A stretch of 41,861 bases of DNA from IMG/VR virus record IMGVR_UViG_3300032213_001164, positions 1-41,861 of that record, one strand, 5' to 3'. Under the pieces are notes generated by a model. It saw nothing but the letters and a program-made list of their open reading frames with translations, searched no databases and was not told the origin of the DNA. The DNA is from a virus (lineage: Duplodnaviria > Caudoviricetes). A program made the translations under genes and the position numbers. Of the stretch, positions 1,147 to 15,119 are shown in pieces (position 1 is the first letter of the stretch; the number at the start of each line of letters is the position of its first letter).

Positions 1147-1689
1147 TTATCCCTGAAATACAGGGGTTTTCACAGTTCGGTCGATGTTGCCAAAACCCTC
1201 GCCTTCAACCGCACCCAAGGATTTCCCTGAGCTATCGCGTGCGCCCTGAAGATTCTCAGCCTGGACGCGGATCTTGTCCGCCTCCTCTTGAGGAGCCTCA
1301 TGGTGCATTTGCAGCATGACATCCTGATAAACATCCATCGGAAGTTTGTACAGGCGCATCTCGTTGCATGCGATAAAACCGATGTCTTCGCCAGCCTTTA
1401 CGCGGTAATTCTCGAAGTTTGGCAATTCATCTGCGCTAACAGGTATATAGCCAAGTCGCATCCGCTTATCAATGCTGTCGTATCCATTGGTGGTCGATAA
1501 CCAGCAAAGGTGCCAGCCCGGAATTTCCGGAACTTTTGGCAGCGCACTTTGTGTCCACTCATCGCTCCACATCTTTCGACGTTCCTGCGCTGACATGAAC
1601 TTCTCTTCGGGGGCGGCTCGGGTCTGATCTTGTGAAGATCGATTCTCGCGGCCACCAGCGTTGAGAGTTTTTTTGAGACGGGTATCCAT
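1147..1689 (-). CDS. Hypothetical head-module protein
   Basis: 180-aa ORF in operon context between scaffold and capsid genes. Confidence 0.6.
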   Translation of the reverse strand: MDTRLKKTLNAGGRENRSSQDQTRAAPEEKFMSAQERRKMWSDEWTQSALPKVPEIPGWHLCWLSTTNGYDSIDKRMRLGYIPVSADELPNFENYRVKAGEDIGFIACNEMRLYKLPMDVYQDVMLQMHHEAPQEEADKIRVQAENLQGARDSSGKSLGAVEGEGFGNIDRTVKTPVFQG

Positions 1690-1694
1690 AATGT

Positions 1695-2660
1695 TTAGCT
1701 CCTCTTGTTTCGTGCATCTTGGGCGTATCGTTTGATCATCCGGCTGCGCTTCTGGGGATCATCCCAGAAACCGGCTTCCTTCATTGCTCGGACCTGTTCA
1801 GGTTCCAAAACAAATTCGTTGCCGCTTCCGCGTCCGGCTGACTCACGACTCGACCCAGTCACAAAGCTACGAGGGCTCCTTCTGGACGGACTTTCGTCTT
1901 GTGATCGAGTATAACGGTGTGGCAATCGCTTTTGCAAGCGGTTGTCAAGCTCGTCCCAATAATCTTTTGTCTCGGGATTCCAACCCTCGGCAACCAGCCG
2001 CTGGTCGATGACCTTGGCAATGGCCGAATCTTCATCGCTGGAATCCGGGCTGTACCAAGAATTGCGCTCCATCCAATCATTGGCCAGCCTGACCAACTTG
2101 GGATTTGCCGGGGCAGTTTCCTGCGAGTCGGCTCGGGCTGCGCGTTCCTTGTAGTTCTGCATCGCCTCAAGTTTGCGGCGACTGTCGTACCACATCTCCT
2201 GCGCCTTGGTAAATGCAGCGCCGTCCGAGTTATCGGTGGCCTCCTGCATCTTGCGCTGCGCGTACTGGAATCGGTACTGCTCGTCCTCAATGGCCTTCTC
2301 AAAGCGGGCCAAGTCCGCGCCGTGGGTCTTTCGCTCCACAACGGACAGGCGCTCCATCAACTCCCGATTCTGGCGCTCAAGCAGTTGCAGCTTGGCATCC
2401 TTCTCCTCGTTGGTGCGCTTGATGTAGTCCTTCTTGGCCCGGCGACGGTTGCGTCTGGCCTCGCGGATGGCGTCAGTGTCGTCGGGGTGATCTTCGTCCC
2501 CGCCGTCATCATTGGCGTCCGACCGGGAGGTGAGGCCGGCGTCTTGATCCTGATCGTCACTCTCAGGATTTTGGAGATCCGCTGGAAGCTGAACGACGGC
2601 CGAGCCGTCCTTTTCCTCGACGACGGAAATCTCTTCGTTTTGCGTCTTGTCTGTAGTCAC
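1695..2660 (-). CDS. Putative capsid scaffolding protein
   Basis: 321 aa with acidic disordered N-terminus, long coiled-coil-like middle and basic C-terminal helix; lies between portal and capsid. Confidence 0.6.
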   Translation of the reverse strand: MTTDKTQNEEISVVEEKDGSAVVQLPADLQNPESDDQDQDAGLTSRSDANDDGGDEDHPDDTDAIREARRNRRRAKKDYIKRTNEEKDAKLQLLERQNRELMERLSVVERKTHGADLARFEKAIEDEQYRFQYAQRKMQEATDNSDGAAFTKAQEMWYDSRRKLEAMQNYKERAARADSQETAPANPKLVRLANDWMERNSWYSPDSSDEDSAIAKVIDQRLVAEGWNPETKDYWDELDNRLQKRLPHRYTRSQDESPSRRSPRSFVTGSSRESAGRGSGNEFVLEPEQVRAMKEAGFWDDPQKRSRMIKRYAQDARNKRS

Positions 2661-3097
2661 AGAAAGGCCCTCATTGCAAGTGGATCACCAGTGAGCTTCG
2701 CAATCACCTCGTGATCATTCAGAACCATGAACAGTGCCGGATCTTCAAAATCGTCATCGCCAGGGACTTTGACCTCCCAACGATCACCGCCCCACTTGGG
2801 GACGCGGATGTAGTCGCCTACAGAGCACCAAGACCCCTCTGGCCATGCCTGCATCGTGTCTCGATGCTTGAATGCCAGCGGACCGATCTCGACGACCTTG
2901 GCCACCATGTTCTGCCACTTCTCGGTTTCTTTGGTTTCTTCAACCAAAATAATCCCTGCGCTTGTTGCCTTCTTTTTGGTGCGGCGCAACTGTACAAGAA
3001 TGCGTCCGCCAAGAGGTTTAGCACCGGGGTCTACGCTCGGGAAAGCCCAAGCCAACTCAGCTTTGTCAAAAGCTACCGGCTCACTCATGTTCATCAT
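2657..3097 (-). CDS. GroES/Cpn10-like co-chaperonin
   Basis: Motifs KPLGGRILV, TSAGIIL (mobile loop), AKVVEIGP, VGDYI and LNDHEVIAK match the GroES pattern. The true start may be a few codons later. Confidence 0.85.
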   Translation of the reverse strand: MMNMSEPVAFDKAELAWAFPSVDPGAKPLGGRILVQLRRTKKKATSAGIILVEETKETEKWQNMVAKVVEIGPLAFKHRDTMQAWPEGSWCSVGDYIRVPKWGGDRWEVKVPGDDDFEDPALFMVLNDHEVIAKLTGDPLAMRAFL

Positions 3098-3266
3098 CTT
3101 CCTTCATCAAGTTGTTCAGGATATCAAGGGCCTCCTGTAAGCCCGCGTAATGTCCGACCATGCGGTGGTAAGTCTCCCAGTTCGCTGCATTACCAACAGC
3201 GAGGGACGCGGCTATTTCAGCCTGCCTAGACTTGACGCCACCAATCAGGTCGCCGATGGTTTTCAT
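3081..3266 (-). CDS. Hypothetical protein
   Basis: 61-aa helical ORF overlapping both neighbours. Confidence 0.6.
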   Translation of the reverse strand: MKTIGDLIGGVKSRQAEIAASLAVGNAANWETYHRMVGHYAGLQEALDILNNLMKEDDEHE

Positions 3267-3415
3267 TTTTTCTTCGCTTGGGCAAGGCCTCCTTTGGGTT
3301 GCGAGCCAGACTGGCCCTTGGGTTGCATGCTCGAGCCGTCAAGTTTCTCGCCCATTGCGATACGCTTGTGCTGGGGCACGTTGATGCTCTTCTGCTCTTG
3401 GTCACTCGTAGCCAT
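3263..3415 (-). CDS. Small basic hypothetical protein
   Basis: MATSDQEQKSINVPQHKRIAMGEK...KGGLAQAKKK. ATG at 3415 is preceded by AAGGAGG. Confidence 0.55.
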   Translation of the reverse strand: MATSDQEQKSINVPQHKRIAMGEKLDGSSMQPKGQSGSQPKGGLAQAKKK

Positions 3416-5939
3416 ATTGGCCTCCTTGGGGTTGTGCAGCCTTGACCTGCTCGAAATCGAGCTTGGCCGCATCTCGCGTTAGGCGGGCTGCTTCGATGCG
3501 TTCCTTCATCTCGTTGTCGCCCCTGGCAATCGCCAGTTTCAACTGCATCTCTTCCATCTCGCGCTCCTGGCGCTGCTGAAGCTCCTGCATGTCCATCTGG
3601 ATCTTGGCCGCCAACTCCTTGTCCTTGAGTTGCATCTCGGCCTGATCGCGGGCCTGCCGGCGTTGAGTCTCGGCCATGCTGGTGTCCAGCAAAACCTTTG
3701 CCTCTGGCGGCAGTTGGGGCTGCTGCTTGAACTGCTGCAAGTTCTGCATGAGTTGCTGGATGACCGGCAAGATTCCTTGGAGGGTCTGCTCCGCGTCCAT
3801 CTCAACGTGCTGCGATGCGGCACCGAACATGCGGTCAATGATCTTCGGATCGTTGTGCAACTCGTAGTCTGGCAGCTTGTCGCCTGCGGCCTTCTGGACG
3901 TAGCCGTTCATGCGGTTGAGATACCACAGCACGATGTGCTGCTTGATGTGCTCCACGGCCTTGGGCAGATATGCCGGCGCGATCATCGGGTTGGAGCCGA
4001 AGATTGGGCTCTTGGCGAAGTCCAAGTGGGTCTGGATGTGGCCCAGGTGATCCTGCTCGGGGTACGCGAAGGCCGCCTGCCCGATGGCCAGGGCGACGTT
4101 CTCGTTGGCAGCGTCCTGCTTGACCGGCGCAGGCACATCGATCATCAATTCGTTGATGCCGGGCACCTTGATCTGTTTGAGGAACCGCTGTATCACCGCC
4201 CTCTTGTTGAAAATGTCGGGGTTTTTGTCCATGATGGCCATAACCGCCTGGGTTTGGGCCATTCGCTGGGTTTCGCTGAAGATGTGCGGGTCGGACACCG
4301 GAATCACATCGGTGACCCGCATGAAATCCTCGCGCTTGATGTCCAAATCCTCGACAACCTCGCCGCGCTGCATGTCGTCCAGATACCAGCGATTGATTCG
4401 GCTCAGAACTTTGAGCACCCGGCCCTGAGACTCGTGCAATCTGGCGTGAATGGCCGAGAAAACCGCCGCGCCCTGCTCAATCAGCGCCTGAGTGGTGCCG
4501 ACAGGGGTGTTTTGGCCGACATCAGCGATCTTTTCCTCGGCTGTGGTCACCACGCCCTTGGCCGCGTTGGTCAGCCAGCCCAAAAGCTGGTACAGGACCG
4601 CAGAAGGCGGGTTGAATGGCATCGGCATGGCCAGCTTGCGCACATCATCGACGCCTGGGGCGCCCTCAATCTCCACAACCTGGGTGACTTCGACCTCCTG
4701 GGACTGACCGGAGATCTTGCCGCCCTTGAGCTTCAGGAGCGTCGCGGCATTGTTGATGTGGGCAGAGTCCAGCAAGGCCCTCAGAGAGCCTGTAAGGGCC
4801 GCTGAGAGGCCTCCAATAAGCTGCGGCAGGCCGACGGCGTAGGCGCCGCGCCAGGGAATGAACTTGAACTCAATGACCCAGTCCAATTTGGTCATCGTTT
4901 CGTCGCCCTCCTCCCAGTTCCGATACAAACCGATGACCTCGGTCGATAGATCGTCGATCATCAGGATGTACGGGGCGCTTTCACCCTTCGTAGTCGGGTC
5001 GTCGTCAAGATCCAGCCATGTGTAGATGTGATACACCCGGCGCAGACCGTCCTCGTTCTCGTTCTGGGACTTGCCCTCGATCTTGTTGGTCGCCTTTTGG
5101 GACGCGGTTGGCTCCGGGTCCATCGTTGCGCGGGTCAAAGCAGTGTCTTTGTACAGCCCGGAATTGATCCGGCGCTTGAACTCCCACTCGGAGATGTCAT
5201 CGACCTCGGTAAACCGCTGGGAGGTGTAGAAATTGGCCGACGCAAAAGGCAAAAGCACGTTGTCGATGGGCAGAAACTGCGCACAGGGGCGCTTTTTCTT
5301 CTCGTCGTACCAGAGCTTGAGGTACTGGGAGCCACCGAGAGGCAGTTGAGTGAGCAGTTGCTCCTGCTCATCGCGGAACTCTTCGATCTGCTCGGTCAAC
5401 TGCCAGTTCATGTAGTCGCGTTTGCGCTCTGCGGACGCGCTTTTCTCCTCGGTGACATCCCCCAAAATCTTGGTTTTGGTCGGGCCGTCGGGCGGGAACA
5501 TCTCCTTGATGGCCCTGGCGGCAAAATCAATGCACGCCTCGGCCATTACGGGGTGGACGACCTTCGATGCACCCTGGAAGTTGGCTCCCCCAGGCGCGTC
5601 ATTGCCCATGCCGGTGCGCTTGATGCCCTCTTCGTACTGCTTGTCGCGCTGCTTGCGGGCCTCCCTGTCCTTTTCGATCAGTTCGATGTAGCGCAAGGCC
5701 ATCTTGTCGAGTTCAAGCCCGCTGATGATGTCGCCATCGGCAAGGTTGGCGTAGAAGTCCTCGTCCTCCATCGGCCCCTTGGTGTCCATGCGGACGATGG
5801 CCGATCCGTCTGGAAGCTCCTCAATCTCGGCATCGTCCATCGGCATGTCAACGATGACGCCCTGCTCGTCGTCTTGATCCTGGGGCTCGCCTCCAATGAA
5901 GCGACCGAACTCGGGATCGATGGGAAATTCTGTAGCCAT
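3402..5939 (-). CDS. Portal protein
   Basis: 845 aa with P22-like portal organisation (VHPVMAEACIDF, MNWQLTEQIEE, TPVGTTQALIEQG) and a long Q-rich coiled-coil C-terminal barrel; lies between terminase and capsid genes. Confidence 0.85.
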   Translation of the reverse strand: MATEFPIDPEFGRFIGGEPQDQDDEQGVIVDMPMDDAEIEELPDGSAIVRMDTKGPMEDEDFYANLADGDIISGLELDKMALRYIELIEKDREARKQRDKQYEEGIKRTGMGNDAPGGANFQGASKVVHPVMAEACIDFAARAIKEMFPPDGPTKTKILGDVTEEKSASAERKRDYMNWQLTEQIEEFRDEQEQLLTQLPLGGSQYLKLWYDEKKKRPCAQFLPIDNVLLPFASANFYTSQRFTEVDDISEWEFKRRINSGLYKDTALTRATMDPEPTASQKATNKIEGKSQNENEDGLRRVYHIYTWLDLDDDPTTKGESAPYILMIDDLSTEVIGLYRNWEEGDETMTKLDWVIEFKFIPWRGAYAVGLPQLIGGLSAALTGSLRALLDSAHINNAATLLKLKGGKISGQSQEVEVTQVVEIEGAPGVDDVRKLAMPMPFNPPSAVLYQLLGWLTNAAKGVVTTAEEKIADVGQNTPVGTTQALIEQGAAVFSAIHARLHESQGRVLKVLSRINRWYLDDMQRGEVVEDLDIKREDFMRVTDVIPVSDPHIFSETQRMAQTQAVMAIMDKNPDIFNKRAVIQRFLKQIKVPGINELMIDVPAPVKQDAANENVALAIGQAAFAYPEQDHLGHIQTHLDFAKSPIFGSNPMIAPAYLPKAVEHIKQHIVLWYLNRMNGYVQKAAGDKLPDYELHNDPKIIDRMFGAASQHVEMDAEQTLQGILPVIQQLMQNLQQFKQQPQLPPEAKVLLDTSMAETQRRQARDQAEMQLKDKELAAKIQMDMQELQQRQEREMEEMQLKLAIARGDNEMKERIEAARLTRDAAKLDFEQVKAAQPQGGQYGYE

Positions 5940-11723: not shown

Positions 11724-13142
11724 TCAGACTGCATACGGGTTAACCCTACGCTGCCTGCCGGTGTCGGCGTAGTCCTCGTCGTCCCAGTCATCCCGAGGCG
11801 GCGGGTCGATTTCAAGCCAGCCGGCATCCCGCAGATACCGCAGGGCCTGGGTGCAGGCGTCCACGAAGTCGTCGTGGGTAGTCTCAGGGAACGAGCAGAT
11901 CTGACTGACGAACCCCTCGGCCCAGTCCTTGACGTAGCCTTTCCTGGCGTCCGACTCCGGTATCCAGACCCGGCCACGGGCGATGATGTTGGACACGATA
12001 TTCAGGCGCTGCATCTTGTCGGCGTTGCCTGGGTTGTAGGCGCGGACGGGCAAGTGCGCTCGCTGGAGGTCTTGGATCAGACTGATGCCGGCGCTCTTGT
12101 CCTCGATCAGCAGCAGATCCACCCGCTTGCGATCCTTGCCCTCGCCGAAGATCGTCTCGTACTCCTCGATCACCTTGGGCCGCAGGTCGGGGTACTGCAT
12201 GCGCTCCTGCCAGCAGTCGATCACCATCACCGACATCGGGCCGTCCAGAGGCTTGAACATGCCGAACGTGATGCATGCGGTCGGGTCGTTCTTAACCTTC
12301 TCGGACGTGGCCACATCGTAGCTCTGGAGGATGTACTCGAACCTGGGGAACTCACGCCCGGCAGGCCAGAGCTTGAACATGCCCCGGTTGACGATGCCGC
12401 CTTCCTCCGGGTCGATGATCTCGGCGTAGATCTCCTGGCGGCCCAGGGTCGTGCCCTCGTACTGAAGGATCTGCTTCCTGAAGTTGTCCGACAGGTTCGC
12501 AAGGTTGGCGTAGGTCGAGGCGGTCGTCAGGACAACGTCATCGCCCTCCCGGCCCACCAACTCGACGATCAGATCCTTCGGCTTAGGCGTGGTGGTGCAG
12601 ATGATCTTGGTGTGGGTGCCCAGGCGGACGCCGAACTGAATCTGGTCCCAGGCCTCTTGGAGATAGTCCCAGGCCGCCAATTCATCGCACCACGCCCCGT
12701 GGAACTGCGGCCCCCGGAACCGCTCGGGTTCCGATGCGGGGATGCCCTTGATCAGGCTGCCGTTGATCAGCTTGAGTTCGTGGAGGGCCTTGTTGTAGTC
12801 GGCGATCAAGGCCGACGGGATCACTGTCAGCAGGCCGGAGTCGCCCTCGAAGCAGGTGGAGCGGACATCGCTCGAAGTCGGAGCCGCCACCAGCCAGCGG
12901 GTGCCTGGGTTCTCCCAAGCCCACCAGCCGATCTGCTCTGCCGCTGTTCGGGTTTTCCCTGCCCCACGGCCGGCGAGCATCAGCCAGATCGACCACCAAT
13001 CCCCAGGGGGCAGCACCTGATGCTTGTGCTGGGCCTGGAACCACGACAGGCGCCATGCCCAGGCAAGCCTGACCTCGGGCTTGACCGCCTTGAGACTCGC
13101 CTGCACCTCTGGGTCGGCGAGGATCTCGGCCACGTCAGTCAT
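11724..13142 (-). CDS. terL: Terminase large subunit
   Basis: Walker A AGRGAGKT, Walker B AWCDE, TTTP coupling motif, RNase H-like nuclease residues (SYDVA, IEDK, HDDFVDA). Confidence 0.95.
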   Translation of the reverse strand: MTDVAEILADPEVQASLKAVKPEVRLAWAWRLSWFQAQHKHQVLPPGDWWSIWLMLAGRGAGKTRTAAEQIGWWAWENPGTRWLVAAPTSSDVRSTCFEGDSGLLTVIPSALIADYNKALHELKLINGSLIKGIPASEPERFRGPQFHGAWCDELAAWDYLQEAWDQIQFGVRLGTHTKIICTTTPKPKDLIVELVGREGDDVVLTTASTYANLANLSDNFRKQILQYEGTTLGRQEIYAEIIDPEEGGIVNRGMFKLWPAGREFPRFEYILQSYDVATSEKVKNDPTACITFGMFKPLDGPMSVMVIDCWQERMQYPDLRPKVIEEYETIFGEGKDRKRVDLLLIEDKSAGISLIQDLQRAHLPVRAYNPGNADKMQRLNIVSNIIARGRVWIPESDARKGYVKDWAEGFVSQICSFPETTHDDFVDACTQALRYLRDAGWLEIDPPPRDDWDDEDYADTGRQRRVNPYAV

Positions 13143-13752
13143 CAGCCTGCTTCTTCAACTCGACGTTCTTCAGCACCGCCGAGAGCAGGTTCTCTGCCTG
13201 CACCTCCGCCTCGATCTTGACCGGATTGTCTGCATCCCCGGCCAGGGCCACCCGCTCCCCGTACTTCTTGGGCTTGAGCTTCATGGCCGTCCACTTCCGG
13301 GCGTCGATACGGTTCTTCTGCCATTGCAGGAAGGCGTTATCCAGCTTGTGCTCGATCAACGCCCCGGTCTTCTTGTCCACCACCGCGATGATCTCGGGCT
13401 GCTCGTCGGCGATGGCGATGATCTCGTCAGCCAGGGTGTCGGCCTGTTCCTCCCGTGCGCGAGTGTACTGGTCAGCAAAATCGGGCTTCTTCAGCAACCA
13501 CTCGTAAATCGTAGCCCGCTCCGGCATCCCTTCCGTCTTTACGATCTCCCTGAGACTCTCCCCTTCTGCTATCCGTAAGCAGATGAGGTTTGCCATCTGT
13601 TGGGTGAACATCGTTGGCCTGCCCAACTTCTTCTTTGTGGGCTCCTGGGCGTTTTGCGGCGCGATGGCTATCTCACCCTTGGTTTCGGGCTTTGAAGCCT
13701 CCTGGGGCTGTTTTGGCGCCTTCCTGGCACCCTTCTTGGCGGTTTCTGGCAT
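13135..13752 (-). CDS. terS: Terminase small subunit
   Basis: GRPT...ICLRIAEGESLREI...TIYEWL HTH and RIDARKW...KLKPKKYG, directly upstream of terL. Confidence 0.9.
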   Translation of the reverse strand: MPETAKKGARKAPKQPQEASKPETKGEIAIAPQNAQEPTKKKLGRPTMFTQQMANLICLRIAEGESLREIVKTEGMPERATIYEWLLKKPDFADQYTRAREEQADTLADEIIAIADEQPEIIAVVDKKTGALIEHKLDNAFLQWQKNRIDARKWTAMKLKPKKYGERVALAGDADNPVKIEAEVQAENLLSAVLKNVELKKQADD

Positions 13753-13850
13753 GACCCGTATTCCTCGCTCAGTTGTTGGGGCCTACTTGCGGTCTCTGCG
13801 GTTCTGATTACTGTCGATACCCCGCATCATCCGCTTTCGGCTTTTCGGCT

Positions 13851-14066
13851 TCAAGACGCGGCAGACTCAATCAACTCCACTTGCTCAGGGGCGCGGTACT
13901 GCTCGATCTTCATGCCGGCCGTCAGAGCCTGGACGAGATCGTCCTGAGACGCAACCCGGATGTTGAACGTGCTGTTTGCGACGTGACTCAGCGCCTGCTG
14001 ACGCATGCCAGCTTTGACCAATCGAGCCCCCTGCGGGCCGTGGACGATGTAAATGCGATCTGCCAT
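13851..14066 (-). CDS. Hypothetical protein
   Basis: MADRIYIVHGPQGARLVKA...; ATG at 14066 with GGAGAG RBS. Confidence 0.6.
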   Translation of the reverse strand: MADRIYIVHGPQGARLVKAGMRQQALSHVANSTFNIRVASQDDLVQALTAGMKIEQYRAPEQVELIESAAS

Positions 14067-14160: not shown

Positions 14161-14240
14161 TGGCGTTGGTGGCTGGTTATGAGTCCAGCATCTACTGCGT
14201 CAATTCGCAGTCGTTTTCCACACTTCTAAACTACACCAAC
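14161..14240 (-). ncRNA. Degenerate tRNA-like cloverleaf A with encoded 3' G-CCA
   Basis: GTTGGTG TA GTTT-AGAAGTGTGGA-AAAC G ACTGCG-AATTGA-CGCAGT AGAT GCTGG-ACTCATAA-CCAGC CACCAAC G CCA. Four intact stems, but non-canonical anticodon and T loops. Confidence 0.65.
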
Positions 14241-14393
14241 ACGGCTGGGGACTCGTCGTGCGTCCTTCGATTGAGCGGCGACACCGGCCGCATCCCCATG
14301 CGTGTTAGCTGTTGGCGAGAGGATTCGCACCTCCGACATCCCCGACCCAGCAGGGCGCTCTCCTTCTGAGCTACACCAACACGGCTGGGGACT
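14231..14393. repeat. 23-nt exact direct repeat CTACACCAACACGGCTGGGGACT, two copies (14231-14253, 14371-14393)
   Basis: Read directly from the sequence; period 140 nt. Confidence 0.95.
14311..14380 (-). ncRNA. Degenerate tRNA-like cloverleaf B
   Basis: GTTGGTG TA GCTC-AGAAGGA-GAGC G CCCTG-CTGGGT-CGGGG ATGTC GGAGG-TGCGAAT-CCTCT CGCCAAC. 6-nt anticodon loop, TGC instead of TTC in the T loop, no encoded CCA. Confidence 0.7.
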
Positions 14394-14469
14394 GAAGCAC
14401 AAGATGCGGGTATCCCCCTGTGCCTCGCTCAACGATCAATCCCCATGCGTCTTGGTGCGGACTACTACC

Positions 14470-14694
14470 CTACTCGCGCTTTCGCTTTTGGAGCTTCGCC
14501 CGCGTTGCCATTTTACCCTTTTGCGGCTTTTTCTGAAAGTAAAAATTTTGCACATCCTCACCCATCCACTTTGCGAATTTACTCAGGTCTTCGGGGTCAA
14601 TGACGTACCAAGTCCTCCTGGCCACATCCCATTGGGCACCAAGCAGTTTCGCGGAATCTTTTTCGTCGAACGGAATCTGAAGATCAACTCGCAT
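14470..14694 (-). CDS. DUF5710-like small protein
   Basis: LQIPFDEKDSAKLLGAQWD...WYV pattern with a basic tail. Confidence 0.6.
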   Translation of the reverse strand: MRVDLQIPFDEKDSAKLLGAQWDVARRTWYVIDPEDLSKFAKWMGEDVQNFYFQKKPQKGKMATRAKLQKRKRE

Positions 14695-14988: not shown

Positions 14989-15058
14989 AAAAAAGCCGTT
15001 ACTGCTGCACTGGGTCGAAACCCCCGTGTTACCGGAGGCCAGTGCATGAGTAACGGCT
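14989..15058 (-). terminator. Branched hairpin with U-tract (attenuator / small RNA)
   Basis: AGCCGTTACT-CAT-GCACTGG-[CCTCCG GTAACA CGGGGG TTTCGAC]-CCAGTGC-AGC-AGTAACGGCT followed by TTTTT. Confidence 0.7.
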
Positions 15059-15091
15059 CTCAATCTGTTGCTTTCGACGACAACGGAGCGG

Positions 15092-15119
15092 AGTATACGC
15101 CCGACACAACGAATGTCAA
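15092..15119 (-). promoter_or_regulatory. Sigma70-type promoter
   Basis: TTGACA (15119-15114), 16-nt spacer, TATACT (15097-15092). Confidence 0.7.

Follow-up and report, generated by a model that had tools for sequence, protein, structure and literature searches.

Organization of the locus

The window, by which we mean the whole stretch of DNA analyzed, is a complete-looking virus record of 41,861 bases (IMG/VR, Caudoviricetes). It carries the gene set of a tailed phage (terminase, portal, primase/helicase, RusA and methylase), and the nearest relative of its terminase comes from an uncultured spring phage (69%). No repressor or integrase was recognized among the 50 window ORFs scanned. The feature described here is on the minus strand, flanked on one side by a DUF5710 ORF (14745-14470) and on the other by a small ORF with terS and terL after it (Table 1). 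The fold of this region beats those of shuffled sequences (z = -3.38), 0/200 shuffles being as good.

Table 1. Features of the array and its flanks, in the order of minus-strand transcription (positions are those of the window)
Feature	Positions	Strand	Description
Separate upstream element	14990..15119	-	strong predicted promoter P1 (15119-15092, 11/12) and pseudoknot-like hairpin RNA of ~95 nt
Predicted sigma-70 promoter P2	14510..14537	-	TTCAGA-16-TAAAAT; 9/12 matches, consensus match only
Lead RNA module	14457..14503	-	hairpin with GAA/AGUA-type internal loops and GNRA loop
R1 of unit 1	14437..14456	-	5' arm of clamp stem; predicted RNase III cut 14448/14447
Cargo X1 (42 nt)	14395..14436	-	unrelated insert instead in L392
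R2 of unit 1	14374..14394	-	3' arm of clamp and shared acceptor 5' strand; predicted cut 14382/14381
Cargo Y1	14311..14380	-	70-nt tRNA mimic: D arm, T arm, 6-nt anticodon-like loop
7-nt linker and R1 of unit 2	14290..14310	-	distal box degenerate; predicted cut 14301/14300
Cargo X2 (35 nt)	14255..14289	-	
R2 of unit 2	14234..14254	-	predicted cut 14242/14241
Cargo Y2, tRNA-shaped	14161..14240	-	76-nt module (14240-14165) and G-CCA
Downstream genes	11724..14066	-	small conserved ORF 14066-13851; terS 13752-13135; terL 13142-11724

The first-pass annotation had described two minus-strand units, in each of which a hairpin around a variable insert runs into a tRNA-like cloverleaf with a 6-nt anticodon-like loop. 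This description is confirmed: the R2 copies are 140 nt apart and the R1 copies 147 apart, the 23-nt repeat at the junction is exact while the inserts differ, and the two cloverleaf-like modules (14380-14311, 70 nt, and 14240-14165, 76 nt) both have the short loop. The internal loop of the hairpin, first read as 3x3, is actually 2x2 (CA/GC), since U-A pairs. The G-CCA said to end the last unit is present at 14164-14161, but it is absent from all three independent Y2 homologues, which end in AACC or AACT.

The locus also proved bigger than first described, since the units are preceded by a predicted promoter and by a lead RNA module (14537-14457). The predicted start site of P2, 14503, is the first base of the lead-module stem. 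In the related locus L392 both the P2 -10 box and the lead module are retained. The lead module is identical in 35/39 nt to X cargos of four other loci (L041, L069, L107 and L117); in the window it is unclamped.

A dual repeat with two cargo slots

The conserved part of the locus is the dual repeat R1/R2, and the tRNA mimics are its passengers. We found the R1/R2 family in roughly 600 IMG/VR stretches: an estimated ~490 contain the exact R2 core, and other stem variants account for 109 more. Using a parser that demanded R1, R2 and their pairing, full units were detected in 219 of the 229 viral loci fetched (118/120 plus 101/109), and 0 units in 539,904 shuffled bases. When a degenerate R2 pattern was run on genomes, 4 of the 120 loci retrieved, all MAG contigs, contained units and the other 116 were chance matches; four contigs are too weak a basis for naming a host. 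A blastn search for cultured phages with the array (array, R2 core and upstream element against 50,697 phage records) returned only tRNA or chance matches.

Units follow the order R1 - X - R2 - Y - 7-nt linker - R1. The stem provides two cargo slots, with X held within the hairpin and Y enclosed by an acceptor-like stem. Most of the 219 viral loci (168) have one unit, so that the 'array' is often a single cassette; two units are present in 45, three in 5 and four in 1. The linker is 7 nt long at 49 of 56 internal junctions, and Y is closed by 7/7 pairs in 193 of 268 cases. Conservation extends to the tail that follows Y (A 0.74, A 0.67, C 0.69), which most often reads AACC or AACT (125/254). 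Cargo lengths range from 24 to 140 nt for X and from 30 to 217 nt for Y. Among 167 first units, 19 have a -10 box whose end lies 12 nt ahead of R1, compared with 0-6 at other distances; the predicted start of transcription is then the first base of the lower stem.

Rfam searches (20 loci at gathering thresholds, 15 + 20 loci by E-value) found only tRNA inside the arrays. A sub-threshold int-alpA match and a true Betaproteobacteria-1 match lie beside the cassettes, not within them; the int-alpA RNA match (31.3 bits, gathering 35.8) is located just downstream of the array in L010 (1386-1318, minus strand). In L028, two normal tRNA genes stand directly after the array (1632-1783, plus strand), and some arrays would thus be co-transcribed with real tRNAs. 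A terL cluster recurs downstream on the same strand in 63/154 loci and a terS cluster in 37/154. No recurring partner protein was found besides these terminase subunits, the next same-strand family being present in only 17/154 loci. Some arrays sit among early recombination genes, with recombinase-like genes, recognized by eye, nearby.

Cargos are diverse and exchanged between units

We collected 266 distinct units, a set that includes extra loci fetched by tRNA-targeted queries. Their 240 X and 254 Y sequences fall into 260 blastn families, of which 175 are singletons; these counts depend on a crude blastn clustering, and the parser clipped some Ys too short. In a set not enriched for tRNA shapes, a T-loop occurs in at most 17 of 227 Y cargos. 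The tRNA-like slot is therefore usually filled by other RNAs, and the tRNA mimic is one cargo among many. Cargo interiors fold only slightly better than shuffled sequences (median z -0.61 for 102 X families and -0.36 for 82 Y families).

Cargos change partners readily. All 26 X families present in at least three units, and 21 of the 22 such Y families, are combined with two or more partner families. Even identical sequences (17 X and 8 Y) turn up beside partners of different families, and five families are found in both the X and the Y slots. The Y1 family of the window alone occurs behind seven different X families. A natural swap is seen in the close relative L392, whose sequence identity to the window across the terminase genes is 91-94%: lead module, unit 2 and repeats are all retained and the flanks are near-identical, but both X and Y of unit 1 are replaced by unrelated cargos; the leader next to the array is unchanged. 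We are highly confident that the locus of the window belongs to a widespread kind of phage repeat array, here with two units, that carries freely swapped small RNAs. Recombination through the short repeats would account for the shuffling.

A common Y family (L019, L022, L035) deserves mention: it is tRNA-shaped with a variable central arm, and its D-like and T-like loops are Watson-Crick complementary, which we read as a kissing-loop elbow.

The tRNA mimics keep an elbow and an acceptor arm

The two Y modules of the window had been taken for tRNA mimics that are unlikely to decode, rather than normal tRNAs or members of a described family. ARAGORN indeed reports 0 tRNAs, and with relaxed settings gives inconsistent Ser, Thr or unknown calls. 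The expectation concerning Rfam stood for Y2, which folds as a cloverleaf but has no Rfam match (window at gathering threshold, locally at E 10), and not for Y1, which matches RF00005 at 49.1 bits (gathering 29), with a malformed anticodon loop. Of the features of a canonical tRNA, the 7-bp acceptor stem and the D and T arms are present, and a 7-nt loop with a conserved anticodon is not; the middle bases of the anticodon-like loop vary among homologues of the mimics. In six Y1 sequences the D arm, T arm and acceptor stem are unchanged and the 6-nt loop varies. Y2 has an 11-nt D loop, a 6-nt anticodon-like loop and a non-canonical T loop of 8 nt; across four Y2 homologues the anticodon-like loop measures 5-6 nt and the T loop 8 nt.

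That stems are kept while sequences diverge, as had been proposed for both hairpin and cloverleaf, is borne out by covariation in the clamp stem (see below), but covariation is not significant in the window's own cargo families: Y1 shows 0 compensatory pairs in 6 sequences, and the single compensatory pair of Y2 in 4 sequences is equalled in 122/500 shuffles. Among tRNA-like Ys as a whole (n = 31), T-stem pairs 50 and 51 covary in 28 of the 31 scored, and large inserts (70-165 nt) occur in the anticodon and D regions. Judged from sequence, the elbow and acceptor arm of tRNA-like Ys are preserved and the decoding end is not.

Two further readings of the mimics were dropped. To read Y1 as Ser(GCU), one stem must be broken; the 72-nt subfamily does not have this reading, and a long variable arm is missing; a Met-like loop in the T arm of Y2 is not conserved.

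The clamp stem folds as RNA and has features of an RNase III site

R1 pairs with R2 in a 19-bp stem that includes the 2x2 CA/GC loop. Stem pairs 11-14, 16 and 17 covary in a set of 128 non-redundant units, one per X family: 0/500 shuffles reach the observed mutual information, in a shuffling scheme that ignores relatedness, and the best partner of each position is the predicted one. At pairs 11-12, G.U occurs 28 times and A.C once (120 units), a bias that indicates folding on the sense (transcribed) strand.

Pertzev and Nicholson (PMC1540722) describe the E. coli RNase III element as 11 bp, with a distal box formed by UA and a stringently required U.G, a tolerant middle, and a proximal box (GC, A/U, AU, A/U) in which G-C at pb2 or pb4 is inhibitory; in the T7 R1.1 site, pb4 is a U.C pair. 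A review (PMC3867540) states that distal boxes lack conservation between species and that mismatches can restrict cutting to one strand. The clamp stem resembles such a substrate in several respects. With 11 positions on the upper side of the predicted cut and 8 on the lower, the helix fits an element of ~11 bp from cut to distal box and about two turns in all. In the distal box, U16-A is found in 114/120 units and U15.G in 112/120; the 5' base of the latter pair was left free in the search pattern, and C-G, the better pairing, occurs in only 6. G10-C (pb1) and U9-A (pb2) are invariant; this invariance, like that of the loop, is partly built in, because parts of R2 were fixed by the search patterns. 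Pairs 11-13 are variable yet paired, and the middle of the element varies. In the proximal box, pb1 and pb2 match and no antideterminant is present, while pb3 (A.G) and pb4 (C.C) are mismatched.

A scan of 11 registers singles out one, which scores 6.02 of 12 without antideterminant in either half (next best 4.10); scores refer to E. coli determinants, which may not be those of the host. The lower half-site of the R1/R2 family matches only 2.1 of 6 positions. The family of the upstream element, unrelated in sequence, fits the same register (7.34, next 4.17, 70 sequences), through its lower half, with the confound that the U's of its distal box also start a U-tract. In the window, the distal box of unit 2 has G.A where U-A is expected. 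An alternative pairing, between R2 of unit 1 and R1 of unit 2, gives the same predicted cut sites.

From this modelled fit we consider it likely that the clamp stem is cut by host RNase III to release the cargos. The mimics had been proposed as RNase P/Z processing tags through which small RNAs of variable insert are set free. The outline of that proposal is supported, except that the tag would be a hairpin stem fitting an RNase III site, not the tRNA mimic. RNase P could act second on the subset with 7+5 geometry: a T-arm-like hairpin is found in 30/112 Y families, compared with 9.8 expected.

Two overlapping folds

Hairpin and cloverleaf had been described as competing through an overlap of 7 nt in one unit and 3 nt in the other. 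Instead, the overlap amounts to 6/7 acceptor pairs in both units, G.U counted. Competition is confined to the bottom 6-7 bp, as the upper hairpin and the cloverleaf can form together. When the upper hairpin is held constant, the long helix of the precursor is more stable than the acceptor fold, by 4.0 and 5.9 kcal/mol in the two units of the window. Among 211 units it is favored in 73%, by a median of 2.3 kcal/mol, and the two folds are within 3 kcal/mol of each other in 50%. The predicted cut on the 3' strand falls one base before the acceptor G, and the predicted fragments fold alone into hairpin and cloverleaf; in Y1, the extra U pairs with the A after the stem. The strand freed by cutting would then pair with the end of Y, so that the two folds would represent precursor and product, not the two states of an on/off switch. 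In our folding models, the overlap reads best as this succession of a precursor (long helix) and a product (acceptor stem).

Proposed mechanism and alternative explanations

The model we favor, with somewhat better than even confidence, is one of swappable small RNAs cut out by RNase III, which might serve as stable decoys against host defences. Transcription would start at 14503 from the sigma-70 promoter. Each R1/R2 pair would first fold into the 19-bp helix, sequestering the acceptor 5' strand. RNase III would cut at G^CAUG and, with a two-base stagger, at CAGCCG^U (Table 1), although the CA/GC loop may limit the enzyme to one strand. Once cut, the short lower helix would fall apart and the freed strand pair with the end of Y. 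X and Y would leave with base-paired ends resisting exonucleases, tRNA-shaped Ys being perhaps trimmed by RNase P.

The released cargos may act in trans as structural mimics binding host proteins. tRNA-targeting defences are well documented, and mimics that keep an elbow and an acceptor arm with no readable anticodon would be suitable decoys for tRNA-binding or tRNA-cutting proteins. We propose a role in host conflict because small, end-protected, shape-conserving RNAs are exchanged rapidly in a variable phage region. Taken by itself, a decoy or sponge function of the cargos is put forward tentatively, as a possibility we would rate a little below even. With yet more reserve, we may hypothesize an integron-like RNA library, in which phages would trade hundreds of small structured RNAs, tRNA elbows included, through one RNase III-read, self-refolding chassis, each cargo being a mimic or sponge directed at a different host defence or RNA-binding protein.

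Antisense regulation, in which cargos akin to P1 C4 or P4 CI would pair with leaders of their own or of rival phages and so determine lysis/lysogeny or superinfection immunity, is the foremost alternative, and in our judgment an unlikely one. C4 is ~77 nt long, has three stems and is cut from a precursor by RNase P (PMC5320573), and resembles many Ys in size and shape. The region holds two predicted promoters and a terminator-like RNA, specificity-driven diversification would account for the variety of cargos, and that no repressor or integrase is recognized among the 50 ORFs also speaks for this reading. However, matches of unpaired cargo segments (7-10 nt) to the flanks of their own loci show no excess in 120 loci (p 0.12-0.31), in a test that covered own flanks and the window and that could miss short split targets as well as those located in a host or another phage. 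A single excess appears, for 7-mers taken from the whole cargo (p 0.006), but the sense control shows it too (p 0.001). In the window, 4/5 modules have no above-chance match, and the exception, a 13-mer of Y2 (2/200 shuffles), points to a distant coding region and derives from a paired segment. Furthermore, L392 swaps its cargos next to an unchanged leader, and no C4 match is obtained in Rfam.

It is also quite unlikely, in our view, that a phage or host protein other than RNase III binds or cuts the stem by reading the CA/GC loop, or that RNase P/Z alone punctuates the transcript. In support of these alternatives, the 2x2 loop is near-invariant in two unrelated families, beyond any known need of RNase III; the T-arm-like hairpins on the acceptor stem (30/112 Y families) and the conserved tail after Y also count in their favor. 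Yet no non-terminase protein family recurs in more than 17/154 loci, and binding to the loop alone leaves the U.G at distal-box distance unexplained. As for RNase P/Z alone, 82/112 Y families lack T-arm geometry, and the precursor leader is paired right up to the acceptor stem, a configuration that disfavors RNase P.

Alternatively, the array may merely mature and protect the 5' end of a late terminase mRNA, in a T7-like manner, with cargos as incidental stabilizing structure. The frequent downstream terL (63/154 loci, same strand) would be consistent with such a role, as would the scarcity of terminators after terminal units (4/111) and the presence of a ribosome-binding site and ORF within 70 nt after 29/111 of them. 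A single stem would be enough for this purpose, yet 51/219 loci have two to four units; the sequence of a cargo family is maintained whichever slot it occupies and next to unrelated partners; and arrays also occur among early recombination genes. We regard this explanation as improbable.

A conformational switch controlling read-through into the terminase operon, as suggested in the first-pass annotation, appears very improbable. The array is located in the terS leader and half of the units have folds of near-equal energy, as noted above. However, there is no convincing terminator between the array and terS, the sole minus-strand terminator-like match being a 5-bp hairpin inside R2; neither fold forms or hides a terminator or ribosome-binding site, the same overlap exists in internal units far from any gene, and the cargos are unrelated, with no shared ligand-binding core. 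Finally, we give hardly any credence to a single-stranded DNA recombination site like integron attC, with cargos as DNA cassettes: attC sites have an AAC-N5...N5-GTT geometry with a variable loop, which the repeat resembles, and the cargos are shuffled, but the AAC triplet is not kept (CCAAG in 81/285 units), the wobble bias favors the transcribed strand, and an integrase is absent among neighbors and in the window.

Comparison with known systems

The clamp stem shares with T7 RNase III sites (R1.1 and the minimal substrate, PMC1540722) and with RNase III stalks around stable RNAs a length of about two turns, the distal UA and U.G, the proximal G-C and U-A (here partly fixed by the search), a free middle, a mismatch beside the cut and, as predicted here, phage use of the host enzyme. 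In contrast to T7 sites and stalks, the phage array is a repeated chassis around hundreds of unrelated non-coding inserts, and its stem, with predicted cuts, has a lower strand that serves a second time in the acceptor stem of the following RNA. P4 CI RNA is cut from its leader transcript by a host nuclease. Like P1/P7 C4 and P4 CI, the cargos are small multi-stem phage RNAs of 70-100 nt that would be nuclease-cut from a leader; unlike them, they have no C4 match in Rfam and no cis target that we could find, and many families occupy one scaffold instead of one RNA with variable loops.

In YrlA Y RNAs, one domain mimics a tRNA and carries both a D and a T arm; a 6-nt anticodon-like loop is present in Yrn1, and one YrlA is cut by RNase P (PMC4201824). 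Bacterial and phage Y RNAs share this domain and both arms with the mimics of the window, and Yrn1 also the 6-nt loop. However, we found no Ro60/Rsr gene in the window or among recurring neighbors and no Y RNA match in Rfam, and the mimics end in an acceptor stem of their own. Another likeness is with allo-tRNAs, tandem polycistrons of irregular tRNA-like RNAs for which PMC5389517 proposes non-translational roles; those have 8/4 or 9/3 geometry and are acidobacterial, near toxin-antitoxin genes. The window shows tandem irregular tRNA-like RNAs as well, but their geometry is 7/5 and their variable loops are short; the units are separated by a conserved hairpin, and most cargo in the family is not tRNA-like.

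Constant repeats alternate with variable, exchangeable inserts in CRISPR, TIGR and integron arrays, and this layout is common to the phage array. Here, however, the inserts are structured families (X 24-140 nt) rather than short guides, and no effector, Cas or integrase gene lies nearby. We found no published description of such an array in a literature search whose coverage excluded subscription journals. PMC5737381 reports 224 motifs, largely in Rfam, which may bear on single cargos. The architecture is real, widespread and apparently undescribed.

The release step, if true, would be of a known kind, namely RNase III stems; the apparently new part is the two-slot exchange of ~260 unannotated RNA families. 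A chassis that is cut once, refolds and leaves both ends paired would be a compact means of expressing several stable small RNAs from one promoter. The base-exact predicted RNA ends and the cargo list make it possible to test whether small RNAs other than CRISPR repeat mimics and genuine tRNAs serve phages as interchangeable means of counter-defence. Should the integron-like library exist, it would represent a large untapped class of RNA-only anti-defence factors.

The upstream element and other features of the window

The RNA of the upstream element (15058-14994) has the same CA/GC loop as the clamp and a U-tract, in a different outer sequence. Its first loop pairs with a side bulge of the terminator-like hairpin, and this pairing covaries: at least 6 complementary bases are found in 70/70 own pairs, compared with about 12 when partners are swapped. 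The element family is present in about 300 IMG/VR stretches, has no match in Rfam and stands as a family of its own, possibly a CI-like RNA. A Betaproteobacteria-1-like RNA (RF02932) lies near the same element in L461 (93 bits), L468 and L474; this sequence association may hint at betaproteobacterial hosts. Between the upstream element and P2, the stretch 14990-14745 is wholly different in L392 (137-343), which is without the DUF5710 ORF.

Other observations concern the surroundings of the array. In the record of L392 (G001, 2758-3584), the match to the terL of the window is interrupted by ~830 bases, possibly an intron or homing endonuclease. A 1725-aa protein with an ART-PolyVal ADP-ribosyltransferase domain is encoded between terL and portal in the window (11120-5943, minus strand), and a GroES-like co-chaperonin after the portal gene (3097-2657, minus strand). 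A recurring motif bearing a palindrome occurs at 14146-14107 (minus strand) and 15174-15143, and also after the arrays of L203, L017 and L116; it could be a protein-binding or packaging site. Just before terS, a short module (13825-13797, minus strand) matches Y-slot cargos of L034 and L036, here without a clamp.
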